Origin: Candidatus Hydrogenedentales bacterium
GTDB lineage: Bacteria; Hydrogenedentota; Hydrogenedentia; Hydrogenedentales; JAEUWI01
Assembly: GCA_044359155.1 (NCBI GenBank)
Contig: JBIKMR010000003.1
Location: forward strand, 1 to 45,109
Reading direction: 5' to 3'
Length of the DNA stretch: 45,109 nucleotides
The notes under the pieces are model-generated. The model searched no databases and was not told the DNA's origin. It worked only from the letters and a program-made list of their open reading frames with translations. The number at the start of each line of letters is the position of its first letter. Position 1 is the stretch's first letter. The position numbers and the translations under genes were made by a program. Positions 19,993 to 29,378 of this stretch are shown here, piece by piece.

Positions 19993-21066
19993 CTAGATCA
20001 CGAAGTCCTCTACGAATACACGTGCATCGCGTGCGCTTACGTAGACGCGGTCGTTCTGGCCAATGGCCAGCTCGGAAAAGCGGGCGTGGGAAAGGTCCAC
20101 ACGGATTCGGTCGTTATTGGCGAGCGCCAGCTCAACGCGCACGACGGGGCCGGTGGTTTGCACGCGCAAGACATGGGCTTCGAGATAGCTGCCGTGTCCG
20201 TTGGTGGCCGGGTGCAGGTCGAGGTCGTGCGGGCGGATGAAGGCGCGGCCTTCCTGCCCTTCGGGCGCGCCATCCACAGGCAGGGCCAGCCCGCCAACGC
20301 GCAGGCTGCCTCCCTCGACACGCCCGTGGAAGAGGTTTACTGTGCCAAGGAAGTTGGCAACGAACTCGGTGGCGGGACGGTGGAACAAGTCTTCCGGTTT
20401 GCCGTCCTGCTCGATATGCCCCTTGTTCATCACCACCACGCGGTCGGCCACTTCGAGCGCTTCTTCCTGGTCGTGGGTCACAAACAGGCTGGTGATATGC
20501 AGCTCGTCGTGAAGCTGGCGCAGCCACCGGCGCAGCTCTTCGCGCACCTTGGCATCCAGCGCGCCGAAGGGTTCGTCGAGTAGCAGCACCTTGGGCTCCG
20601 TGGCGAGGGCGCGGGCTAGCGCCACGCGCTGCCGCTGGCCGCCGGATAGCTGAGACGGATAGCGGTGCTCCATGGATTCGAGTTGCACAAGGCCCAGCAG
20701 CTCGCGCACGCGACGGGCTATCTCCGCCTTCTCTGGGCGCTCGCTGCGGGGCCGCACGCGCAGGCCAAAGGCCACGTTGTCGAACACGGACATGTGGCGG
20801 AAGAGAGCATAGTGCTGGAACACAAATCCCACGCGCCTCTCCCCCACGCGCTTGAAGGCGACGTCCTCGTCGTTGAACCGGACAGTGGTGCCGGGCAGCA
20901 CGTCGGGGTATTCCAACCCGGCGATGATGCGCAGCAGGGTCGTCTTGCCCGAGCCAGAAGGCCCAAGCAGCGCCACAAGTTCGCCGGGGTTCACGGTAAG
21001 CTGGACCTTGTCCAGCGCCGTGAAGGAGCCAAAATGTTTGCTGATGTTGTTGACTTCAATACTCAT
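19993..21066 (-). CDS. cysA: Sulfate/thiosulfate ABC transporter ATP-binding protein
   Basis: [30 protein letters not shown] and a C-terminal TOBE-like region; operon context. Confidence 0.95.
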
Positions 21067-21938
21067 GAAACAGTCTCCACAGTCCTTGCTCCCTCGCGTG
21101 AGGTGGCGTGCATTCGCCGCTCAACGATGGCTTTGGCCACCAGCGTGAGCAGCGCCAGAAAAGTTAGCAGCGACGCGGCGGCAAAGGCCGCTACGAAGTT
21201 GTACTCGTTGTAGAGAATCTCTACGTGGAGAGGCAGCGTATTCGTCTTGCCACGTATGTGGCCGGACACCACGGACACCGCGCCGAATTCGCCCATGGCA
21301 CGGGCGTTGCAAAGGATGACGCCATAGAGCACGGCCCAGCGCACGTTGGGCAGGGTCACATGCCAGAAGGTCTGCCAGCCGTTCGCCCCCAGCAGGATGG
21401 CCGCCTGCTCCTCGTCTGTCCCTTGTTCCTGCATGAGGGGTATCACCTCGCGCGCGACGAAGGGGAAGGTGACGAAAATGGTAGCCAGCACAATGCCCGG
21501 CACGGCGAAGATAATCTCGATGTCGTTGGCTTGCAACCACGGGCCGAACCAGCCGTGCGCGCCGAAAAGCAGCACATACACCAATCCCGACACTACGGGG
21601 GAAACGGCGAAGGGTAGGTCGATGAGCGTGATAATAAAGCTGCGCCCTGGGAACTGGAACTTTCCTAAGGCCCAAGCAGCGGCGAGGCCGAAGACGGTGT
21701 TCAACGGCACTGCAATAACGCAGACGATGAGCGTCAGCTTGATGGCAGCAAAGGCCGCCGAGTCATTGAAGCTGGCGAAGTAGGCGTAGACACCCTTGCG
21801 CAGCGCCTCAAAAAATACGGCCCCCAAGGGTGCCACCAAAAAGAGACTGAGGAAAGCGATGGTAATCGAAATGAGCAACCAGCGCACCCAGGCGGGCTCG
21901 GAGATTTGCGCGTTCACGTTCTTGGATATTGCAGACAT
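21063..21938 (-). CDS. cysW: Sulfate ABC transporter permease CysW
   Basis: [13 protein letters not shown] and [36 protein letters not shown] 21938 is coupled to the cysT stop. Confidence 0.95.
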
Positions 21939-22777
21939 CAGGCCATGCTCCCCTGGTAGCGGCGTACGCTCCACCATTGCAGCACGTTGATGAGGAAGAG
22001 CAGCACGAAGGAGAACAGCAGCATGACGACGGCGATGGCAGTGGCGCCGGGGTAGTCGTATTGTTCCAGCTTGGTGATGATGAGCAGGCTGGTGATCTCG
22101 GTCTTCATCGGCATGTTGCCCGCAATGAAGATGACGGAGCCATACTCACCTATGCTGCGTGCGAAGGCCAGCGCAAAGCCGGTGAGCAGTGGCGGAATGA
22201 GCGGGGGCATCAGCACGCGAAAGAAGGTGGCGAAACGGGACGCACCCAGGCTGCTGGCCGCCTCTTCCACTTCACGGTCGAGGTCGGCAATGGCGGGCTG
22301 CACCGTGCGCACCACGAAGGGCAACCCAATGAAAAGCAAGGCGATACCAATGCCAAGGGGGCTGAAGGCAGTCTTGATGCCCAGCGGGGCGAAGAACTGC
22401 CCAAACAATCCGGCGGGAGCATAGAGCGCCGTGAGCGCAATGCCGGAAACGGCGGTGGGCAGGGCGAAGGGAAGATCGATCAAGGCATCAACGATCTTCT
22501 TGCCGGGGAAGGTGTAGCGCACCAGCACCCAGGCGGTAATGAATCCAAAGAATAGATTTACGAGGGCGGCCAGGAAGGATACGCCGAAGGTCAGCTTGTA
22601 GGATGCCACCACGCGCGGGCTGGCAACCGCCTCGAAGAACTCCGCCACCGTCAGCGAACTGGTGCGCACGAACAAGGCCGCCAGCGGCACAAGCACAATC
22701 AAGCTCAGGTAAGTTACCGTGAAGCCAAGCGTCAATCCGAAGCCGGGTAGGACGCTATATGTTTTATTGAGAGACAT
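21938..22777 (-). CDS. cysT: Sulfate ABC transporter permease CysT
   Basis: LPGFGLTLG, DLPFALPTAVSG and GEYGSVIFIAGNMP.KTEI. Confidence 0.95.
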   Translation of the reverse strand: MSLNKTYSVLPGFGLTLGFTVTYLSLIVLVPLAALFVRTSSLTVAEFFEAVASPRVVASYKLTFGVSFLAALVNLFFGFITAWVLVRYTFPGKKIVDALIDLPFALPTAVSGIALTALYAPAGLFGQFFAPLGIKTAFSPLGIGIALLFIGLPFVVRTVQPAIADLDREVEEAASSLGASRFATFFRVLMPPLIPPLLTGFALAFARSIGEYGSVIFIAGNMPMKTEITSLLIITKLEQYDYPGATAIAVVMLLFSFVLLFLINVLQWWSVRRYQGSMA

Positions 22778-22878: not shown

Positions 22879-23943
22879 TTAGGGCTGGTATATCTGGTCA
22901 AAAATGCCGCCGTCGTTGAAGTGCTTCGGCTGGGCTACTTCCCACCCGCCGAAGTAGTCGTCAATGGTGAACAACGTCAGCTCCTGGAATCGCGCGATGT
23001 CCTCGGGCGCGGCATGCTCCGGGGAGCGCGGACGGTAGTAGTGCTTGCCTGCAAGCTTCTGCCCCTCGGGCGAGTACAGATACTTCAGGTACTCGTTGGC
23101 CACTTCGGTCGTGCCATGCTTCTCGGCGTTCTTGTCCACCAGCGTTACCGGCGGTTCCGTCAAGATGCTGCTGGGCGGATAGACAATCTCAACCAGGCCC
23201 TTGCCCAGTTCGTTGGCTGCAAGGAAGGCTTCATTTTCCCAGGAAAGGAACACGTCGCCGATGCCGCGCTGCAGGAACGTGGTCGTGCTGCCGCGCGCGC
23301 CAGAGTCCAGCACCGGAACATGCTTGTACAGTTCGGAGATGAACGCCTGCGCCTTCGCTTCCGCCGCTGCCAACTTCTCCGGTTCGGCATTGGCGGGCGT
23401 TGTATCGCCCAGTTCCTGTCGCAGCGCCCACGCCCAGGCGGCGAGGTAGTTCCAGCGCGCGCCGCCCGAAGTCTTCGGGTTCGGCGTGATCACCTCGATG
23501 TCGCCCTTGACGAGATCGCCCCAGTCCTTGATCTTCTTCGGGTTGCTCTTGCGCACCAGGAATACAATCGTGCTGGTGTAGGGGGAGCTGTTGTGGGGCA
23601 GGCGGCTCTGCCAGTTCTCGGGCAGCACCTTGGCTTCACGGGATATGGCGTTGATGTCATAGGCCAGCGCCAGCGTGGCGACGTCTGCGGGCAAGCCGTC
23701 GATCACGGCGCGGGCCTGTTTGCCTGCGCCGCCGTGCGACTGGTTAATCGTTACGTCCTGGCCGGTCTTGTCTTTCCAATACTTGGCGAAGGCTGTGTTG
23801 TACTCGACGTACAGCTCGCGCGTCGGGTCGTAGGAGACGTTGAGCAGGGTGACGGATTCGGCATGGGCCGCCGTCAATGCCCCCAGCACCAGGCCAGCAA
23901 CAAGCCCGCGACGCAGCGCGTGTGCAAATTTACTCATCTTCAT
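22879..23943 (-). CDS. sbp: Sulfate-binding periplasmic protein
   Basis: [37 protein letters not shown] and [11 protein letters not shown]. Signal peptide from ATG 23943 with AAGGA SD. Confidence 0.95.
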
Positions 23944-24069
23944 TTCGTTCATTCCTTTTACATCTTGGGTTGTCGTTGGCGGCTTCCCGTCCCGTCCCCC
24001 CTCCTCCCCCTGCGGGAGGGAGGAGAGGGGCGCGTGGGAGGAAGGGTGCATTCAACGCGTCACAGGGGG

Positions 24070-24303: not shown

Positions 24304-25774
24304 TTAGAATTCCAACTGGAATCGAGTCTGCAAGGTGCCGAAGTCATCCTTGAACAGCGGGTGGTCAACCTCGTTGTGGATGTAGTTCCAGCTCACCATG
24401 AAGTTCTTGTTCAGGTACCAGTTCAGGCCAAGCGTTGCGCTGGTGTGTTCGCCGCCCTGGACAGGGCCGCTAGACAGGTCAACTTCGCCATAACGCGCCA
24501 GCACTTCCCATGCGCCGGGACCGCGCTTTTCTCCCTTGAAGGAGAAGGGACGTTCCGGGTTGGGACGCTGAATGCGGCCACTGTCGTGGCGATAAACGCG
24601 GTTCTCGCCCGTGATCACATACCCCGCCTGCGCGTACCAGCCGTCATAGGTCAAGTCGCCGCCGAAGGTAGTCTCCACGTCGGAACGTACGTATTCGCTC
24701 TGGAACGAGAAGCCGCCGAAGATGGCCGCCAGTTCAAGGCCCAGCAAGTTCACGTCATCCGCGCGGGCGCTGGCCAGGCGGAAGCCTGCCGGGACCAGGG
24801 CACTATCCGGATTGATGTAACGGAACAGGCCAAGCCGCGTTTCGGGGCGCACGCCGTAGGGAAGCGCAGCGCCATCCGGATTGCGCAGGCTGTAAGCCGC
24901 GCCCACATGGATGAGTTGGCGACCATCGTTCGCGTAATAAGGCAAACCCGCAATGCGTCCGGTGAACTGGTAACCCTGATCCTCGTCTGAGTCGTTGCTG
25001 CTGGGCCAGTCGTCGGTTTCCTTAAACACGCCCAACTGCCAGGACAAGCGTTCCTTCTTGGGTTCGCCAATCAATGAATCGCTCAACTGGATACCAGCAT
25101 TGCGGGAGGGAACCAGCGTGTCGATTAACGGGTTCTCTTGGAACGCGCGGTCGGTGATCGCGTTCAGCTCGTCGAGGCTAAAGGGTTCCTTGAAGTGGCC
25201 AATGCGAACATCAAAGGCGTTGTCCCCAAAGTAGGGAATGCCGTTGTACTGCAGGAACACGTCGCGGAAGCGGGGCGTATCACCGCCATTTTCACCCGCG
25301 AAATCGATCTCCGCCTGGTAAGTTATGTCGGAATAGACCTTACCCGAGAGCGTAAGCCGCGCCGCGCGGAAGCCGGTGCCATCCTGCTCGTCGCCAAAGG
25401 CGGCTTCCAGGTCATCGCCCTGATCGAACCACGCGAAGTCGTGGATCAATCGCAGGCCAATCTTGCTTTCGAAGGCGCCATCGGGCGTGCTGAACTTCAG
25501 GCCGTCCTGGTTGAGTGACAGCTTGGGGGTTGCAGCCGCCTTCTCGGCGTCCTTCTTTACCTGTTCCTGCTGGTCCGTGTCGTAACGTGTCCAAATACCG
25601 TCCACACGGCGCTCGACATCGTCGATCTTTTCGAGCTTTTTCTCCAGCTCCTCTATGCGCTGCTGAAGACGTTCCAGCTCTACCGCATCGGGGGGGAGCC
25701 TTGGACGCGCCTTGCGCCCACGCCGGGCTGCTGCCAGCAAGCAGCACGGCTAGCCCTGTTCGTAGCCATTTCAT
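24304..25774 (-). CDS. OprO/OprP-family anion-selective porin, frameshifted at a C7 tract (25690-25696)
   Basis: FR.ARL...G, GHFKEPFSL, GAWEVLARY, TLGLNWYLN and a terminal F. The signal peptide MKWLRTGLAVLLAGSSPAWA (ATG 25774, GAGGAG SD) lies in a different frame from the barrel. Confidence 0.85.
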
Positions 25775-25904: not shown

Positions 25905-26126
25905 TTACTTGCGGCCCGCATCGAGGCGGACGCGTTCGCGCCGGTCGATTTGAACCACGCGTCCGTCGTGGACGGTGACTTCCACGGAGCCGTACTTGAG
26001 GCTGCCGACTGCGGTGAGGATCCGGCGGGCCACGTCCTCATCCACGCTGGCTGCGCCAATGGCGCGCGGGGTTTTGGGTTCCACCGCCTGAAGCGGCACA
26101 AAGGACTGGGGGCTAACGTTTGACAT
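25905..26126 (-). CDS. YezD/DUF2292 (OscA-like) small protein
   Basis: LKYGSVEVTVHDGRVVQIDRRERVRL signature; the family is commonly found with sulfate-uptake genes. Confidence 0.88.
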   Translation of the reverse strand: MSNVSPQSFVPLQAVEPKTPRAIGAASVDEDVARRILTAVGSLKYGSVEVTVHDGRVVQIDRRERVRLDAGRK

Positions 26127-26201: not shown

Positions 26202-26660
26202 CTAAATGTAGTACATGGGAACGGCGGGTTCTTTGCCGTGCCTCATCTCTTCAACCAAGTCCGCGAGGGACTTTTTCTCCAACACCTCCGCCATCGCGTC
26301 GCGTACTTCGCGCATGAAGGGCCTGACTACGCAGGTCTCCATGTCGCTACAGCCTTCACACTGAATCGGGTCGCGCGTGCGGGCACAGGGCGTTGGGGCA
26401 AAGGGACCGTCGAGCGTGCGAATGATCTCCGCGAGGGTAATCTCGCGGGGGTCGCGCGCAAGGGTGTATCCCCCCGCCGGACCGCGCCTGCTCCGCAGCA
26501 AGCCGCGCTTTCTCAACTGTGTCAGGGTCGCTTCAAGGAACTTCAGCGGTATGCCTTCCTGCTCCGCGATCTGGTCCACAGCTACAAGGTCGGCGTTTGG
26601 GGCATATGCCCCGAGCACCGCCATGGCTCGCAGACCGTATCGCGCTTTGGAAGAAAGCAT
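26202..26660 (-). CDS. Rrf2-family transcriptional regulator (CymR/IscR-like)
   Basis: LSSKARYGLRA, IP.KFLE, SRRGPAGGY.L, 'ITLAEIIRTLDGP' and a Cys cluster C-x8-C-x2-C-x5-C. Confidence 0.93.
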   Translation of the reverse strand: MLSSKARYGLRAMAVLGAYAPNADLVAVDQIAEQEGIPLKFLEATLTQLRKRGLLRSRRGPAGGYTLARDPREITLAEIIRTLDGPFAPTPCARTRDPIQCEGCSDMETCVVRPFMREVRDAMAEVLEKKSLADLVEEMRHGKEPAVPMYYI

Positions 26661-26666
26661 TCGCGT

Positions 26667-26717
26667 ATTTCCTATCGACTGAGGCGGAAATTAGCATACT
26701 TCAAATGTCATTGTCAA
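26667..26717 (-). promoter_or_regulatory. Putative rrf2 promoter with overlapping degenerate operator (26667-26691)
   Basis: Minus strand TTGACA-N18-TAATTT with an extended TG. Plus-strand site ATTTCCTAT-N7-GGCGGAAAT. Confidence 0.45.
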
Positions 26718-26735
26718 CCCTGAATTGTGGGCTGG

Positions 26736-26969
26736 TTAAATTCCTGAACCGTCTTCCATTTCAAACTCGAAGGGCGGCACGAAGGTCTTTGGGCGCGCCA
26801 CCTGACGAACGGCCTTCTCATAGGCTTCCGCATAGATTTGCTGGCGTTCCCGCCGCTCTTCCGGGGAAAGCTGCCCAAAGAAAACATCCGGTACACGCAC
26901 GAAAGGGTTGTCCTGGTCGAGCTCGTTCTGCCGGGCGGTGCGATCCAATGCGTGCTGTAACTTCTTCAT
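26736..26969 (-). CDS. Hypothetical 77-aa protein, first gene of the Rrf2 cluster
   Basis: GAGGGTG SD, its own promoter, and a helical 'QQIYAEAYEKA' core. Confidence 0.7.
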   Translation of the reverse strand: MKKLQHALDRTARQNELDQDNPFVRVPDVFFGQLSPEERRERQQIYAEAYEKAVRQVARPKTFVPPFEFEMEDGSGI

Positions 26970-26985
26970 GATATCACCCTCTTGA

Positions 26986-27027
26986 AAAGTCTATCGGAAT
27001 TGTAGCTTAAATTACCCGCAATGTCTA
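26986..27027 (-). promoter_or_regulatory. Leftward sigma70 promoter overlapped by operator-like site 3 (26986-27010)
   Basis: Minus strand TAGACA(27027-27022)-N17-TACAAT(27004-26999). Plus-strand site AAAGTCTAT-N7-GTAGCTTAA. Confidence 0.65.
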
Positions 27028-27053
27028 GTACTTTCGTATGTTATTGATAATGC

Positions 27054-27082
27054 TTGACTTACGAATTTTCTTGTGCTATATT
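27054..27082 (+). promoter_or_regulatory. Rightward sigma70 promoter for the Met/Cys-rich gene
   Basis: TTGACT-N17-TATATT with an extended -10 TG. Confidence 0.75.
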
Positions 27083-27197
27083 CCGCTCACCTTACCGAAG
27101 GCACCAGCCACTCTGGCTTACCTATACACACCAATGCTGACGCAACGTCGACGCGGAGATCCCATCGGGGAATCCCTCGAACACTGGGAGACCTCTA

Positions 27198-27668
27198 ATG
27201 AAGACTATGATGATGGAAGGCAATATGATGGGGATGGCGCCGATGGGTATGGGCGGCATGGGGATGGGCGCACCGATGATGAGCGCCCCCGCGGGCATGA
27301 ACATGATGATGATTCCGCGCTGCACGATGATGATGGAGAAGTGCGACGGCGGCATGAAAATGATGTGCACCTGTACGGACGCCACGGCCTGCTCCATGAT
27401 GCAGAACCTGTGCAGCATGATGGCCGGTGGCATGATGAGCTGCTGCATGATGATGAACGGCATGGTGATGATGAACTGCAACATGACCATGGGCATGTGC
27501 AAGTGCGAGATGACCAAGGACGGCATGTGCATGACGTGGACCAGCGGCGACGCGATGTGCTGCGACATGATTCAGGCCTGCTGCGACATGATGATGAAGA
27601 TGATGGAATGCGGCTGCACCTGCTGCATGTGCATGAACGGCACGCCCGTGTGCTGCTGCTCCTGCTAA
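27198..27668 (+). CDS. Extremely Met/Cys-rich hypothetical protein (50 Met and 25 Cys in 156 aa)
   Basis: GGGAG SD, own promoter and terminator, internal two-fold repeat, GC-rich third positions. Residues counted by hand. Confidence 0.85.
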   Translation: MKTMMMEGNMMGMAPMGMGGMGMGAPMMSAPAGMNMMMIPRCTMMMEKCDGGMKMMCTCTDATACSMMQNLCSMMAGGMMSCCMMMNGMVMMNCNMTMGMCKCEMTKDGMCMTWTSGDAMCCDMIQACCDMMMKMMECGCTCCMCMNGTPVCCCSC

Positions 27669-27691
27669 TTTACCTAGCCCAATTCGATATT

Positions 27692-27724
27692 GCCCGCCCC
27701 ACCCTGGGGCGGGCTTATCTTTTT
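27692..27724 (+). terminator. Intrinsic terminator
   Basis: GCCCGCCCCA-ccc-TGGGGCGGGC followed by TTATCTTTTT. Confidence 0.8.
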
Positions 27725-27763
27725 GGGAAGAGTGTCGGCAGACGCTTCGAGAATCGCCCCCGG

Positions 27764-28363
27764 TTACTCCTCAATCACCACAGGAGGAGCCACCTTGAGT
27801 ATGCCGTGCTCTTCGAGCCCGAAGGTCCACACCTGCACGCCTTGCATGGCCATGACCTCTACCACGCCAAAGGTGAGCATGGCCGCGAAGATGCCGAACA
27901 GGAATAGCTGATAGCCCAGGCGCAGGTAACGGAATTTCTTGTGCGCAAGAAACTGGCCGCTTTGGTACATATCCCGCACGACGGCCTCGTAGGCCAGCTT
28001 GGGATCGTTACAGAGGGCCTCCATTTCCTTCACATAATCGTCGTGGTCCATGTCCGCATAGGTACCGAAAAAGAGCAGGTTGTAGTTAGAACTTTTTTTC
28101 GCCACGCGGCTGGTCGGTGGCTGGCTGGGCATAAGCACCACGATGGACGATAAGGCTGTCAGTGCGCAGAAAAGTATCGTGATGACGGCAGGCCATTGAA
28201 GCGCATGCTCATCCAGAAAGGGAATGCAAAAGGTCAGCATCAGGGAAGAGACGGTGAGCAGTATGTTGGCCTTGATGTCGGCCATGGCGTTGAGTTGCAG
28301 GTTCTGCTGGCGCGATTGGCGCAGCATCTGGTCCACATGACCTGCCGGTTCGTTAATATTCAT
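27764..28363 (-). CDS. DUF5706 / Pycsar effector-like membrane protein
   Basis: MADIKANILL, two TM helices, NLLFFG, 'KKFRYLR.GY' and a further TM. GGGGAGG SD before ATG 28363. Confidence 0.78.
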   Translation of the reverse strand: MNINEPAGHVDQMLRQSRQQNLQLNAMADIKANILLTVSSLMLTFCIPFLDEHALQWPAVITILFCALTALSSIVVLMPSQPPTSRVAKKSSNYNLLFFGTYADMDHDDYVKEMEALCNDPKLAYEAVVRDMYQSGQFLAHKKFRYLRLGYQLFLFGIFAAMLTFGVVEVMAMQGVQVWTFGLEEHGILKVAPPVVIEE

Positions 28364-28478
28364 GAGCCCCTCCCCTTCCATACGAACTCCGATGATAGCA
28401 GCCGCCAAGGCCTGAATGGCAAGGGCTTGGCCGGGGGCGTTAGAATGCCCGTCTGAAATCGCCACAAGGAGCTACCCC

Positions 28479-29378
28479 ATGTCTGCCGCAGATACCATGA
28501 CTTTCGACACGCCACCTGCGTTTGGTCCCATTTATCGCAAGGTGTTGTTTGGCAAGAAGCGCCCCGGCCTGCGCGCCGGTGCAACGTTGCCGCAGTTGGC
28601 GGCGGAGTGCAAGGGGGTTCGGATAGACGCGGCCAACCTGGCACTGTATCGCTCGGTGTGCCATATCGAGGGAGGTGCGGCGGTGCCGCTGCTGTATCCG
28701 CACGTGCTCACGGGCTCGCTGCACCTGGCCATCATGACACATGAAGCTTTCCCCCTCTCGATGATGGGCGCGGTTCACCTGCGCAACCATGTGCTGGGGC
28801 GGCGCGTGCTGGACCCGGCGGAGCCTTTCGACATTCATTGCTCGCTCGACGCGCACCGCCCTGCCAAGGCGGGCGTGGAGCTGGACGTGAGTACCACCCT
28901 GACCGATGCATCTGGTGCGCGGGCGTGGGAAAGCATCAGCACCTACCTGGTGCGTGGCAAGTTTGGCGAGGCTGTGGAGCTACCTGCCCGTGTGAACATT
29001 GCGGAGGTGGAGCCGACTGCCGAGGTGGCGGCGTGGTTCGTTCCCTCGGGCACGGGCCGCAAGTATGCCCGCGTGTGTGGGGACTGGAACCCCATCCACA
29101 TTTCCACCATCACCGCGAAGCTGTTCGGTTTCAAAAGCGAAATTGTGCATGGCATGTGGGCGGCAGCGGTGTGCCTGGGCAAGCTGCCCGAGGCGGGCGG
29201 TGCGGAACAGTGTGACCTGTTGTTCAAGGGCCCCACGTTCATGCGATCCAAGGTAAGGTTGTTGCGCGCCGACGCGGATGGCGGATCTCGCTTTGACCTG
29301 TTCTGCGGGTCCAACCCGAAGCCCTCGATTGCCGCATGGCGTCGGCCCGTGAACGCCAGCGCGAAGCTGGTCGGCTAG
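28479..29378 (+). CDS. MaoC-family (double hot-dog) dehydratase
   Basis: YARVCGDWNPIH...AKLFGF...HGMW hydratase motif; AAGGAG SD. Confidence 0.88.
   Translation: MSAADTMTFDTPPAFGPIYRKVLFGKKRPGLRAGATLPQLAAECKGVRIDAANLALYRSVCHIEGGAAVPLLYPHVLTGSLHLAIMTHEAFPLSMMGAVHLRNHVLGRRVLDPAEPFDIHCSLDAHRPAKAGVELDVSTTLTDASGARAWESISTYLVRGKFGEAVELPARVNIAEVEPTAEVAAWFVPSGTGRKYARVCGDWNPIHISTITAKLFGFKSEIVHGMWAAAVCLGKLPEAGGAEQCDLLFKGPTFMRSKVRLLRADADGGSRFDLFCGSNPKPSIAAWRRPVNASAKLVG

Follow-up and report, generated by a model that had tools for sequence, protein, structure and literature searches.

What does a bacterium do with a protein in which methionine (Met) and cysteine (Cys) make up nearly half of the chain? 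The question is raised by a gene in a stretch of 45,109 nucleotides (nt) from a Candidatus Hydrogenedentales bacterium (contig JBIKMR010000003.1, positions 1 to 45,109), hereafter the window, within which all coordinates below are positions. The gene, at 27198..27668 on the plus strand, encodes a Met/Cys-rich protein of 156 amino acids (aa), termed the MC protein, and lies back to back with a minus-strand cluster of sulfate-uptake genes. A preliminary description of the locus had proposed that the protein is a reserve of reduced sulfur, made when sulfur is plentiful and degraded on starvation. As set out below, the gene is real and conserved, and its product is possibly a protein that stores or gauges sulfur, which would be the first in bacteria.

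Translation of 27198..27668 gives 50 Met, 25 Cys and no His, the same counts on which the preliminary description had rested its claim of an extreme composition; Met and Cys together amount to 48.1% of the residues, or 75 sulfur atoms in 156 residues, and the Cys include CC, CxC and CCC runs. To place this value, ATG-initiated open reading frames (ORFs) of at least 100 aa were surveyed in the same 4.37-Mb assembly (n = 9059). The MC ORF has the highest Met+Cys fraction of all (0.48), the runner-up reaching 0.23, against a genome background with a median of 0.042 and a 99.9th percentile of 0.175. The Met/Cys composition of the protein is therefore far above chance. All 50 Met are encoded by ATG, 24 of the 25 Cys codons are TGC and GC at the third codon position (GC3) reaches 92%; when Met and Trp codons are left out, GC3 is 0.90, as compared to 0.65-0.80 in 16 neighbouring genes.

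The gene is flanked by the three expression signals that had been claimed for it, all of which were located in the sequence. Judged by its match to the consensus, a putative sigma-70-like promoter (TTGACT-17-TATATT, plus strand, 27054..27082) agrees at 10 of 12 positions and has a TG before the -10 element, and its elements TTGAC and TATA(T/C)T are preserved in the two closest loci (L031 and L043). Downstream of it, a Shine-Dalgarno-like GGGAGA (27186..27191, plus strand) ends 6 nt 5' of the ATG. Behind the gene, at 27692..27724 on the plus strand, an intrinsic-terminator-like hairpin with a 10-bp stem (27692-27714; nine GC pairs) and a T-run sits between the MC gene and a convergent PycTM-like gene. 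The minus-strand cluster has a putative sigma-70-like site of its own by consensus match (TAGACA-17-TACAAT, 26999..27027, minus strand), and the two opposed -35 hexamers are 26 bp apart, as had been stated.

Several lines of evidence show that the MC ORF is a real, conserved bacterial gene under protein-level selection. The ratio of nonsynonymous to synonymous substitution rates (dN/dS) lies between 0.08 and 0.48 in all seven pairwise comparisons with homologs, indicating purifying selection in this frame. A word-indexed protein search returned 335 candidates, of which 323 are MC relatives at E<=0.01; among the 120 matches listed, identity ranges from 56% to 83% and every protein is unnamed or annotated as 'hypothetical'. 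A profile search of 1.84 billion representatives gave 201 matches at E<=1e-3, and a genome scan with one genome per species gave 188 relatives, mainly in Planctomycetota. Among the best 80 of these 188, the majority belong to Gemmataceae and Isosphaeraceae, and a few carriers are labelled Hydrogenedentales, Roseiflexaceae, Alcaligenaceae or Gammaproteobacteria; the ESM Atlas likewise returned only unnamed planctomycete clusters. Outside the sulfur-containing positions, the alignment has fixed columns at P40, R41, E47, G52, N87, G88, G109, D118 and G139, and within the sulfur-rich subfamily 13-14 Cys columns, including CC and CxC pairs, are at least 90% conserved. Compared with Pfam-A and NCBIfam at E<=1, the protein matches no family; a profile search of the PDB gave nothing usable (one chance-level match, E 0.16), and tblastn against plasmids and phages gave no match with the BLAST low-complexity filter on, which may have masked the query.

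The locus also holds long overlapping ORFs, at 27038-27907 on the plus strand (289 aa, rich in D, H and R) and at 27122-27568 on the minus strand (148 aa, rich in I, H and M), which exist because the ATG-rich MC frame has no stops in two other frames. Several database 'homologs' (P0179, P0194 and P0208) result from frameshifted gene calls and continue into a shadow frame of this type. With this account of the overlapping ORFs, and given the dN/dS values, the conserved columns other than Met and Cys and the confident fold described next, we rejected the idea that the MC ORF is no gene but a low-complexity artefact.

The structure of the MC protein was modelled with AlphaFold2 from an alignment of 79 sequences. 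The predicted local distance difference test score (pLDDT) exceeds 90 across residues 40-156, preceded by a Met/Gly/Pro-rich tail (residues 1-36; pLDDT <50) that is disordered. Judged by eye and from this model, the protein has no signal peptide, as the preliminary description had stated. The modelled domain is an internal duplication in which a hairpin-helix-hairpin unit occurs twice, giving eight strands and two helices: strands at 41-49 and 52-58, a helix at 62-75 and strands at 80-86 and 89-95 in the first half, and strands at 100-106 and 109-115, a helix at 119-137 and strands at 141-146 and 149-155 in the second. Met and Cys are predicted to occupy both faces of the strands and do not merely line a cavity. 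No convincing solved relative was found by Foldseek against the PDB (best E 0.5) or by the wide structural search VIA (best Z 5.2 over 90 aligned residues, with a root-mean-square deviation of 3.4). The predicted fold thus has no clear solved relative, although weak matches of this kind do not make a fold new. From the order of its elements we took the swapped-hairpin or cradle-loop barrels (AbrB, MazE, MraZ) as a presumptive lead; these are absent among the Foldseek and VIA matches listed for the model, and a missing match does not exclude that fold.

Across the family, Met+Cys ranges from 5% to 48%, and the comparison of its extremes bears directly on what selection acts upon. The representative search contains homologs of ordinary composition (5-12% Met+Cys: P0163, P0171, P0177, P0229, P0146, P0155 and P0239) alongside a Met-only form (P0232; 33% Met, 3% Cys) and Cys-only relatives with 20-27% Cys (for example P0192, with 27% Cys and 2% Met). 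In a joint alignment, the columns that hold Met in the MC protein of the window hold L, I, V or F in the low-sulfur homologs, and only C42, C142, C152 and three Gly are near-invariant in all forms. P0163, which has 5% Met+Cys, was modelled from seven low-sulfur sequences alone and is predicted to fold in the same order of strands and helices (pLDDT 77-94 over the domain block), followed by a long coiled coil. For this model the best Foldseek match has E 0.02, and the VIA matches (Z <=6.8) are taken up by the C-terminal coiled coil, so that the domain itself was barely probed by that search.

Within the sulfur-rich subfamily, swaps that keep sulfur are over-represented about fivefold relative to an expectation based on BLOSUM62: Cys makes up 13% of the replacements at Met columns (2.1% expected), and Met makes up 16% of the replacements at Cys columns (3.3% expected). 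The existence of the same scaffold without sulfur, together with this excess of Met/Cys exchanges, is read as selection for sulfur in the MC protein. The data support composition-driven evolution of the scaffold, short of proving it, and we read this selection as overlying a domain that has a further function tied to the three Cys. As for the genomic context of the low-sulfur forms, a 301-genome phylum sample gave five matches (the weakest L103, E 1.5e-4), and the four inspected are sulfur-rich forms or the carrier genome itself; scans of metagenomes for low-sulfur homologs confirmed none in one case and gave a single 1.4-kb contig in the other, matching only a C-terminal extension. Three distinct conserved extensions of this kind are seen in low-sulfur homologs (in P0163/P0171, P0146/P0177/P0229 and P0125/P0184), and P0184 has two copies of the MC domain.

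The MC gene does not stand alone. Its divergent neighbour, orf77 (26736..26969, minus strand), encodes a 77-aa protein, has its own Shine-Dalgarno sequence and stands at the head of the sulfur cluster on the minus strand. The preliminary description had presented this cluster as Rrf2/yezD/porin/sbp-cysTWA; the gene content is as described, but the leading gene is orf77 and not Rrf2. A hidden Markov model, seeded from a neighbour cluster together with orf77 and refined in repeated rounds against the loci translated in all six frames, identified a family of partner proteins of ~60-80 aa with four motifs in common: M-F-x-N-R-F at the N terminus, A-F-V-x-C-P in the centre, a Q-x-x-Y-x-x-A-x-E-x-A helix and, at the C terminus of most planctomycete copies, W/S-N. 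The neighbourhoods in question comprise 81 loci, namely the best 80 of the 188 genome relatives plus the window. A partner gene is present anywhere in 61 of them. Of the 78 loci with at least 500 bp of sequence upstream of the MC gene, 55 have the partner gene there in divergent orientation, at a distance of no more than 900 bp. None of 46 partner sequences matches a Pfam family at E<=0.01 (orf77 alone gives sub-threshold noise), a PDB profile search found no usable sequence match, and the 51 database relatives are all 'hypothetical'.

Prediction of the complex between the MC protein and its partner gave ipSAE scores of 0.72, 0.66 and 0.73, compared to 0.00 for the best of three controls. In calibration of the tool, 58 of 80 solved complexes attained that mark, as did 2 of 110 mismatched pairs; the calibration is only rough here because custom alignments were fed to the prediction. 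The runs have at least 75% of contacts in common, with a partner pLDDT of at least 66, and the predicted interface joins MC residues 36-41 and 59-75 with partner residues 21-31 and 42-57, which are conserved motifs of both families. The modelling therefore supports binding of the partner to the MC protein. Gene arrangements elsewhere tie the pair to sulfur genes as well: in L056 the stop of the partner gene overlaps the start of cysT by 4 nt, and in L031, the named relative nearest to the window, a PALP enzyme gene comes after the partner gene and an Rrf2 gene after the MC gene. Taken together, these observations support, but do not prove, a conserved two-gene module.

We then asked which other genes accompany the module. 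ORFs within ~6 kb of the MC gene in the 81 loci were clustered, and clusters occurring in at least three loci with a coding-like GC3 pattern were annotated. Rrf2 regulators are found near the MC gene in 19 of 81 loci, a fusion of cysteine dioxygenase (CDO) with an FAD-binding domain in 10, a PALP enzyme resembling cystathionine beta-synthase (CBS) in 8, genes for an ATP-binding cassette (ABC) transporter of sulfate in 6, and a pyridoxal phosphate (PLP) enzyme of Cys/Met metabolism in 4. The preliminary description had staked its proposal on homologs being linked to sulfur genes, and at least one gene of these five kinds lies near the MC gene in 30 of 81 loci, with at least one sulfur transporter or enzyme in 20. 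The six loci with sulfate transporters (the window, L026 from Fimbriiglobus, L050 from an Alcaligenaceae-labelled metagenome-assembled genome, L056 from Planctomycetaceae, L067 from Isosphaeraceae and L080 from Gemmataceae) differ from one another both in gene order and in taxon label.

Copy numbers in five carrier genomes indicate how much of this could arise by chance. The sbp gene is single-copy in all five (6-9.8 Mb), Rrf2 genes above the cut-off number 4-7 per genome and true CBS genes 0-2, and CDO_I is present in none of the five; from such numbers we estimate a chance expectation of ~0.1-0.2 loci for sbp and about 1 for Rrf2. Singulisphaera and Limnoglobus have CBS and Rrf2 genes 5-12 kb from the MC gene. 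The Rrf2 proteins near the MC gene are of two kinds. One has three or four Cys (the window and ~9 other loci). The other has no Cys, and in several loci from Isosphaeraceae and Gemmataceae its gene directly follows the partner gene, 640-790 bp upstream and on the same strand as the partner. Other recurrent neighbours are DUF1559, PSCyt/PSD/DUF1501 and sulfatase genes, all from families that are very common in planctomycetes, and a transposase. The linkage supports, without proving, a connection between the MC gene and sulfur metabolism, and we consider it probable that the function of the protein is tied to that metabolism.

How, then, might the protein serve it? The reading that we favour, tentatively and as a possibility somewhat short of even, is that the MC protein stores or buffers reduced sulfur within its own polypeptide. 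On this proposal, a pre-existing duplicated hairpin-helix-hairpin scaffold would have had most of its hydrophobic positions swapped to Met or Cys, yielding a folded and presumably cytoplasmic protein that forms one half of a two-gene module with the divergently transcribed partner. The module would be wired into sulfur assimilation and Cys/Met metabolism, probably via Rrf2-type regulators, and the protein would be filled when Met and Cys are plentiful. The partner, predicted to dock on the MC protein at its 'PRC' strand and conserved first helix, would control mobilisation of that protein and may act in the way of NblA-type proteolysis adaptors without belonging to the NblA family; co-transcribed with sulfate-scavenging genes, it could set off mobilisation when sulfur runs short. 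A store would be abundant, which the codon bias and the strong expression signals suit, and both Met-rich and Cys-rich variants make sense if sulfur as such is what is kept. Storage by the MC protein is thus plausible, while the direction of regulation and the role of the partner are what we infer.

Several observations weigh against a store. Selection on composition alone needs no 13-14 conserved Cys columns, which look more like the product of ligand or structural use, and the retention of C42, C142 and C152 in low-sulfur homologs implies that the domain has a function independent of bulk sulfur. Promoters placed back to back with a scavenging cluster could mean induction on starvation, the opposite of what a store calls for. 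High GC3 could reflect foreign origin instead of high expression. A search of the 40 closest relatives of the window genome, 33 of which are at least 90% complete, found no MC gene; the gene is therefore dispensable, its distribution in the window lineage is patchy, and it was probably acquired there. Finally, 51 of the 81 loci have none of the listed sulfur genes within ~6 kb, many of them being short contigs, and because neighbouring loci are phylogenetically related, the raw locus counts overstate their independence.

The conserved Cys columns also keep alive the rival that the preliminary description had named as the main alternative, sequestration of soft metals, there Cu and Ag. Thiolate and thioether groups would bind Cu(I), Ag(I), Cd(II), Zn(II) or Hg(II) in the manner of a metallothionein or copper-storage protein (Csp). 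The Met/Gly tail would then be a 'Mets' motif capturing Cu(I), as its resemblance to Met-rich Cu(I) motifs would allow, and the sulfur genes nearby would meet the cysteine demand of synthesis. The CC, CxC and CCC runs among the 25 Cys and the Cys-only relatives fit such a role. Metallothioneins (SmtA/BmtA, MymT) are short and take their fold from the metal, and Csp is a bundle of four helices whose core is lined with Cys; like them, the MC protein is very Cys-rich, has CC and CxC motifs and few aromatic residues and is probably cytoplasmic. It differs in being one-third Met and in having a confident, beta-rich duplicated domain that was modelled without metal. No metallothionein family profile of Pfam-A or NCBIfam matches it at E<=1, and its model, with eight strands and two helices, is not a four-helix bundle and has no Pfam match that would place it with Csp. 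Among the recurrent neighbour clusters annotated there is no metal-homeostasis family, be it for resistance, sensing, efflux or chaperoning, and thus no recurrent metal-responsive context, although single occurrences could have escaped a survey of clusters seen in at least three loci; the neighbours found are instead sulfate, Cys and Met genes, and the regulators are of the Rrf2 type, with the metal sensors ArsR/SmtB, MerR and CsoR not among them. The lack of His, the Met-only relatives with 3% Cys and the predicted spread of Met and Cys over both strand faces, beyond a cavity lining, also speak against metal binding. The alternative named by the preliminary description thus retains its argument from the Cys columns and finds none among the annotated neighbours, and on balance we regard it as unlikely.

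Somewhat less likely still, in our estimation, is a translational gauge of sulfur, in which a chain with 50 Met and 25 Cys codons could be completed only if enough charged Met- and Cys-tRNA were available. Sulfur status would then be read from the amount of MC protein, which would titrate the partner and so switch an Rrf2-controlled sulfur regulon, a logic likened to that of leader peptides but raised to a folded protein and a partner switch. Co-transcription of the partner gene with Rrf2 or sulfate genes (orf77 followed by rrf2 in the window; the overlap with cysT in L056), the Cys-less Rrf2 genes upstream on the partner's strand, the predicted binding, the enrichment of TCGGAA(TT) in the shared intergenic regions and the conservation of fold and binding surface while composition drifts between Met and Cys would all suit a gauge. 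Yet a gauge has no need of such cost, nor of the codon bias and the strong promoter-like site found here; no Rrf2 gene lies within ~6 kb in 62 of 81 loci, and the low-sulfur homologs cannot gauge sulfur.

We consider it improbable that the protein is a redox or reactive-species sink, whose surface Met and Cys would scavenge HOCl or H2O2, or carry persulfide or sulfane sulfur, and be recycled by reductases. The extreme Met+Cys content, predicted to cover both strand faces, would serve this purpose, and the CDO fusions (10 of 81 loci) and a secreted single-Cys protein (19 of 81) hint at thiol chemistry, but no Msr, thioredoxin-reductase or peroxidase family is found among the annotated recurrent neighbours, and such a sink leaves both the linkage to sulfate uptake and the dedicated partner unexplained. 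A store or scaffold of Fe-S or other inorganic clusters, sensed by a cluster-binding Rrf2 and similar in purpose to IssA, the sole prokaryotic 'sulfur storage protein' found in titles and abstract openings (PMC5524996), is very improbable: the Rrf2 proteins of the window and ~9 other loci do keep three or four Cys, described below, and the MC protein has many conserved Cys, but half of the adjacent Rrf2 proteins lack those Cys, no isc, suf or nif genes are among the annotated recurrent neighbours, and Met richness is left unexplained.

If the protein is a sulfur store, it has analogies among known systems. Plants have sulfur-rich seed storage proteins (2S albumins, delta- and beta-zeins), which are eukaryotic, are held in protein bodies, have an all-alpha prolamin-type fold and reach roughly 20-30% Met+Cys at most. 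As in the proposed store, their composition is itself the sulfur reserve and their accumulation is tied to sulfur supply; the MC protein differs in having no Pfam prolamin match and a predicted fold that is beta-rich rather than all-alpha with eight Cys. NblA of cyanobacteria is a small starvation-induced adaptor that hands nutrient-rich phycobilisome protein to the Clp protease. By analogy, orf77 would resemble it in size (~70 aa), in co-transcription with starvation genes and in predicted binding to a nutrient-rich protein, whereas the partner family has no sequence relation to it (no Pfam family for 46 of 46 sequences). Sulfur sparing, in which low-sulfur paralogs are made under sulfur starvation (cyanobacterial phycocyanin; sulfur-assimilation enzymes of yeast and E. 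coli), is likewise selection on protein sulfur content with the fold kept, but in the MC family the direction is reversed, with enrichment to 48% on a scaffold that has 5% versions.

Sulfur-starvation encapsulins carry a cysteine desulfurase as cargo. IssA is described as a thioferrate store of the archaeon Pyrococcus (PMC5524996). Both are dedicated prokaryotic devices that hold or mobilise sulfur, but by way of an enzyme cargo or an Fe-S polymer, as opposed to sulfur in the MC polypeptide itself. These nearest systems (seed storage proteins, metallothioneins and Csp, NblA, sulfur sparing and IssA) are analogies and not relatives. The MC family, the partner family and the module are unnamed in Pfam and NCBIfam, and a literature search at the level of titles and abstract openings found no bacterial Met/Cys storage protein; at that level, the statement of the preliminary description that no such system had been described agrees with our searches.

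Dedicated polymers or proteins serve bacteria as stores of carbon, nitrogen, phosphorus and iron. A polypeptide store of sulfur with its own NblA-like mobilising adaptor would, if true, be new for bacteria. Whatever its role, the MC domain is a natural and stable domain built largely of Met and Cys, which makes it relevant to protein design and to metal and redox chemistry, and the family is a striking example of a protein whose elemental make-up is under selection. The module also points to regulation of sulfur metabolism by Rrf2-type proteins, so far unstudied, in Planctomycetota and neighbouring groups, and the question of its function is directly testable in cultured planctomycetes.

In the window, orf77 heads the gene string rrf2-oscA-porin-sbp-cysTWA, all on the minus strand. 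The Rrf2-family regulator (26202..26660) matches PF02082 with 133 bits (cut-off 30) and TIGR00738 with 118 bits (cut-off 73), while the CymR, IscR and NsrR equivalogs are all below their cut-offs. By alignment it has four Cys in the region where IscR/NsrR-type proteins hold their cluster ligands. Next come a DUF2292/OscA-like small protein (25905..26126; PF10055, 61.8 bits, cut-off 22), which falls below the cut-off of the OscA equivalog (NF033785, 49 bits, cut-off 85), and a porin of the phosphate-selective O/P family (24304..25740; PF07396, 175 bits). The position of the porin between oscA and sbp suggests a sulfate-specific outer-membrane channel; no porin homolog was found beside the MC gene in the other 80 loci. 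The string continues with sbp, encoding the sulfate ABC substrate-binding protein (22879..24051; NF008022, 469 bits, cut-off 288), the permease genes cysT (21938..22777; TIGR02139, 405 bits, cut-off 246) and cysW (21063..21977; TIGR02140, 415 bits, cut-off 329), and the ATPase gene cysA (19993..21066; TIGR00968, 371 bits, cut-off 342.75).

Two kin of the window genome that lack the MC gene (L090, G001:C3 8670-10961; L091, G003:C1 9248-11652) have an orthologous Rrf2, 73% and 61% identical, followed by a DASS-family anion symporter of ~596 aa that replaces the oscA-porin-sbp-cysTWA string, and in Singulisphaera one Rrf2 gene adjoins the single sbp. The placement of Rrf2 beside the symporter in the kin and beside sbp in Singulisphaera suits a regulator of sulfur assimilation.

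The intergenic region shared by the MC gene and orf77 holds a candidate operator half-site, TCGGAATT (26994..27001), which overlaps the -10 element of the putative minus-strand promoter and is put forward as a lead only. Counted as an exact 8-mer or its reverse complement, TCGGAATT occurs in 5 of 56 MC/partner intergenic regions (mean 0.6 and maximum 2 in mononucleotide shuffles, which served as controls throughout), including those of the distant loci L030, L031, L065 and L072, and TCGGAA occurs in 21 of 56 (shuffles, mean 7.2 and maximum 16); these counts are not independent, because the sequences are related. Otherwise, k-mer enrichment returned promoter-like words. A known riboswitch or other RNA in the MC leader (27089-27197, ~110 nt) was rejected: Rfam at E<=1 over 26600-27800 gave two chance-level matches only, both far below gathering scores, and the leader folds no better than shuffles (z -1.4). 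Short hairpin-forming blocks in the leader, on the plus strand, are common to L031 and L043.

Downstream of the MC gene, the convergent gene at 27764-28465 (minus strand) encodes a 233-aa protein with a PycTM domain, a transmembrane Pycsar effector domain of Pfam (78 bits, cut-off 27); the next ORF, at 28416-29378 on the plus strand, has no NCBIfam match. The CDO/FAD fusion is exemplified by a 666-aa protein (L075:4585-6585, minus strand) that joins a type I cysteine dioxygenase to an FAD/NAD(P)-binding domain, and it is found in nine other loci. The unnamed secreted protein of ~220-260 aa, for which the window has no counterpart, is encoded in 19 of 81 loci by a same-strand gene behind the MC gene (L012, at 1279-1950 on the plus strand, L006, L009, L019-L021, L029, L030, L032, L034-L036, L040, L042, L044, L047, L048, L069 and L071). 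It has no Pfam match, and is characterised by an N-terminal hydrophobic segment and a conserved single-Cys motif; its gene lies 0-280 bp downstream in most of these loci and ~800-1070 bp downstream in L021 and L040.

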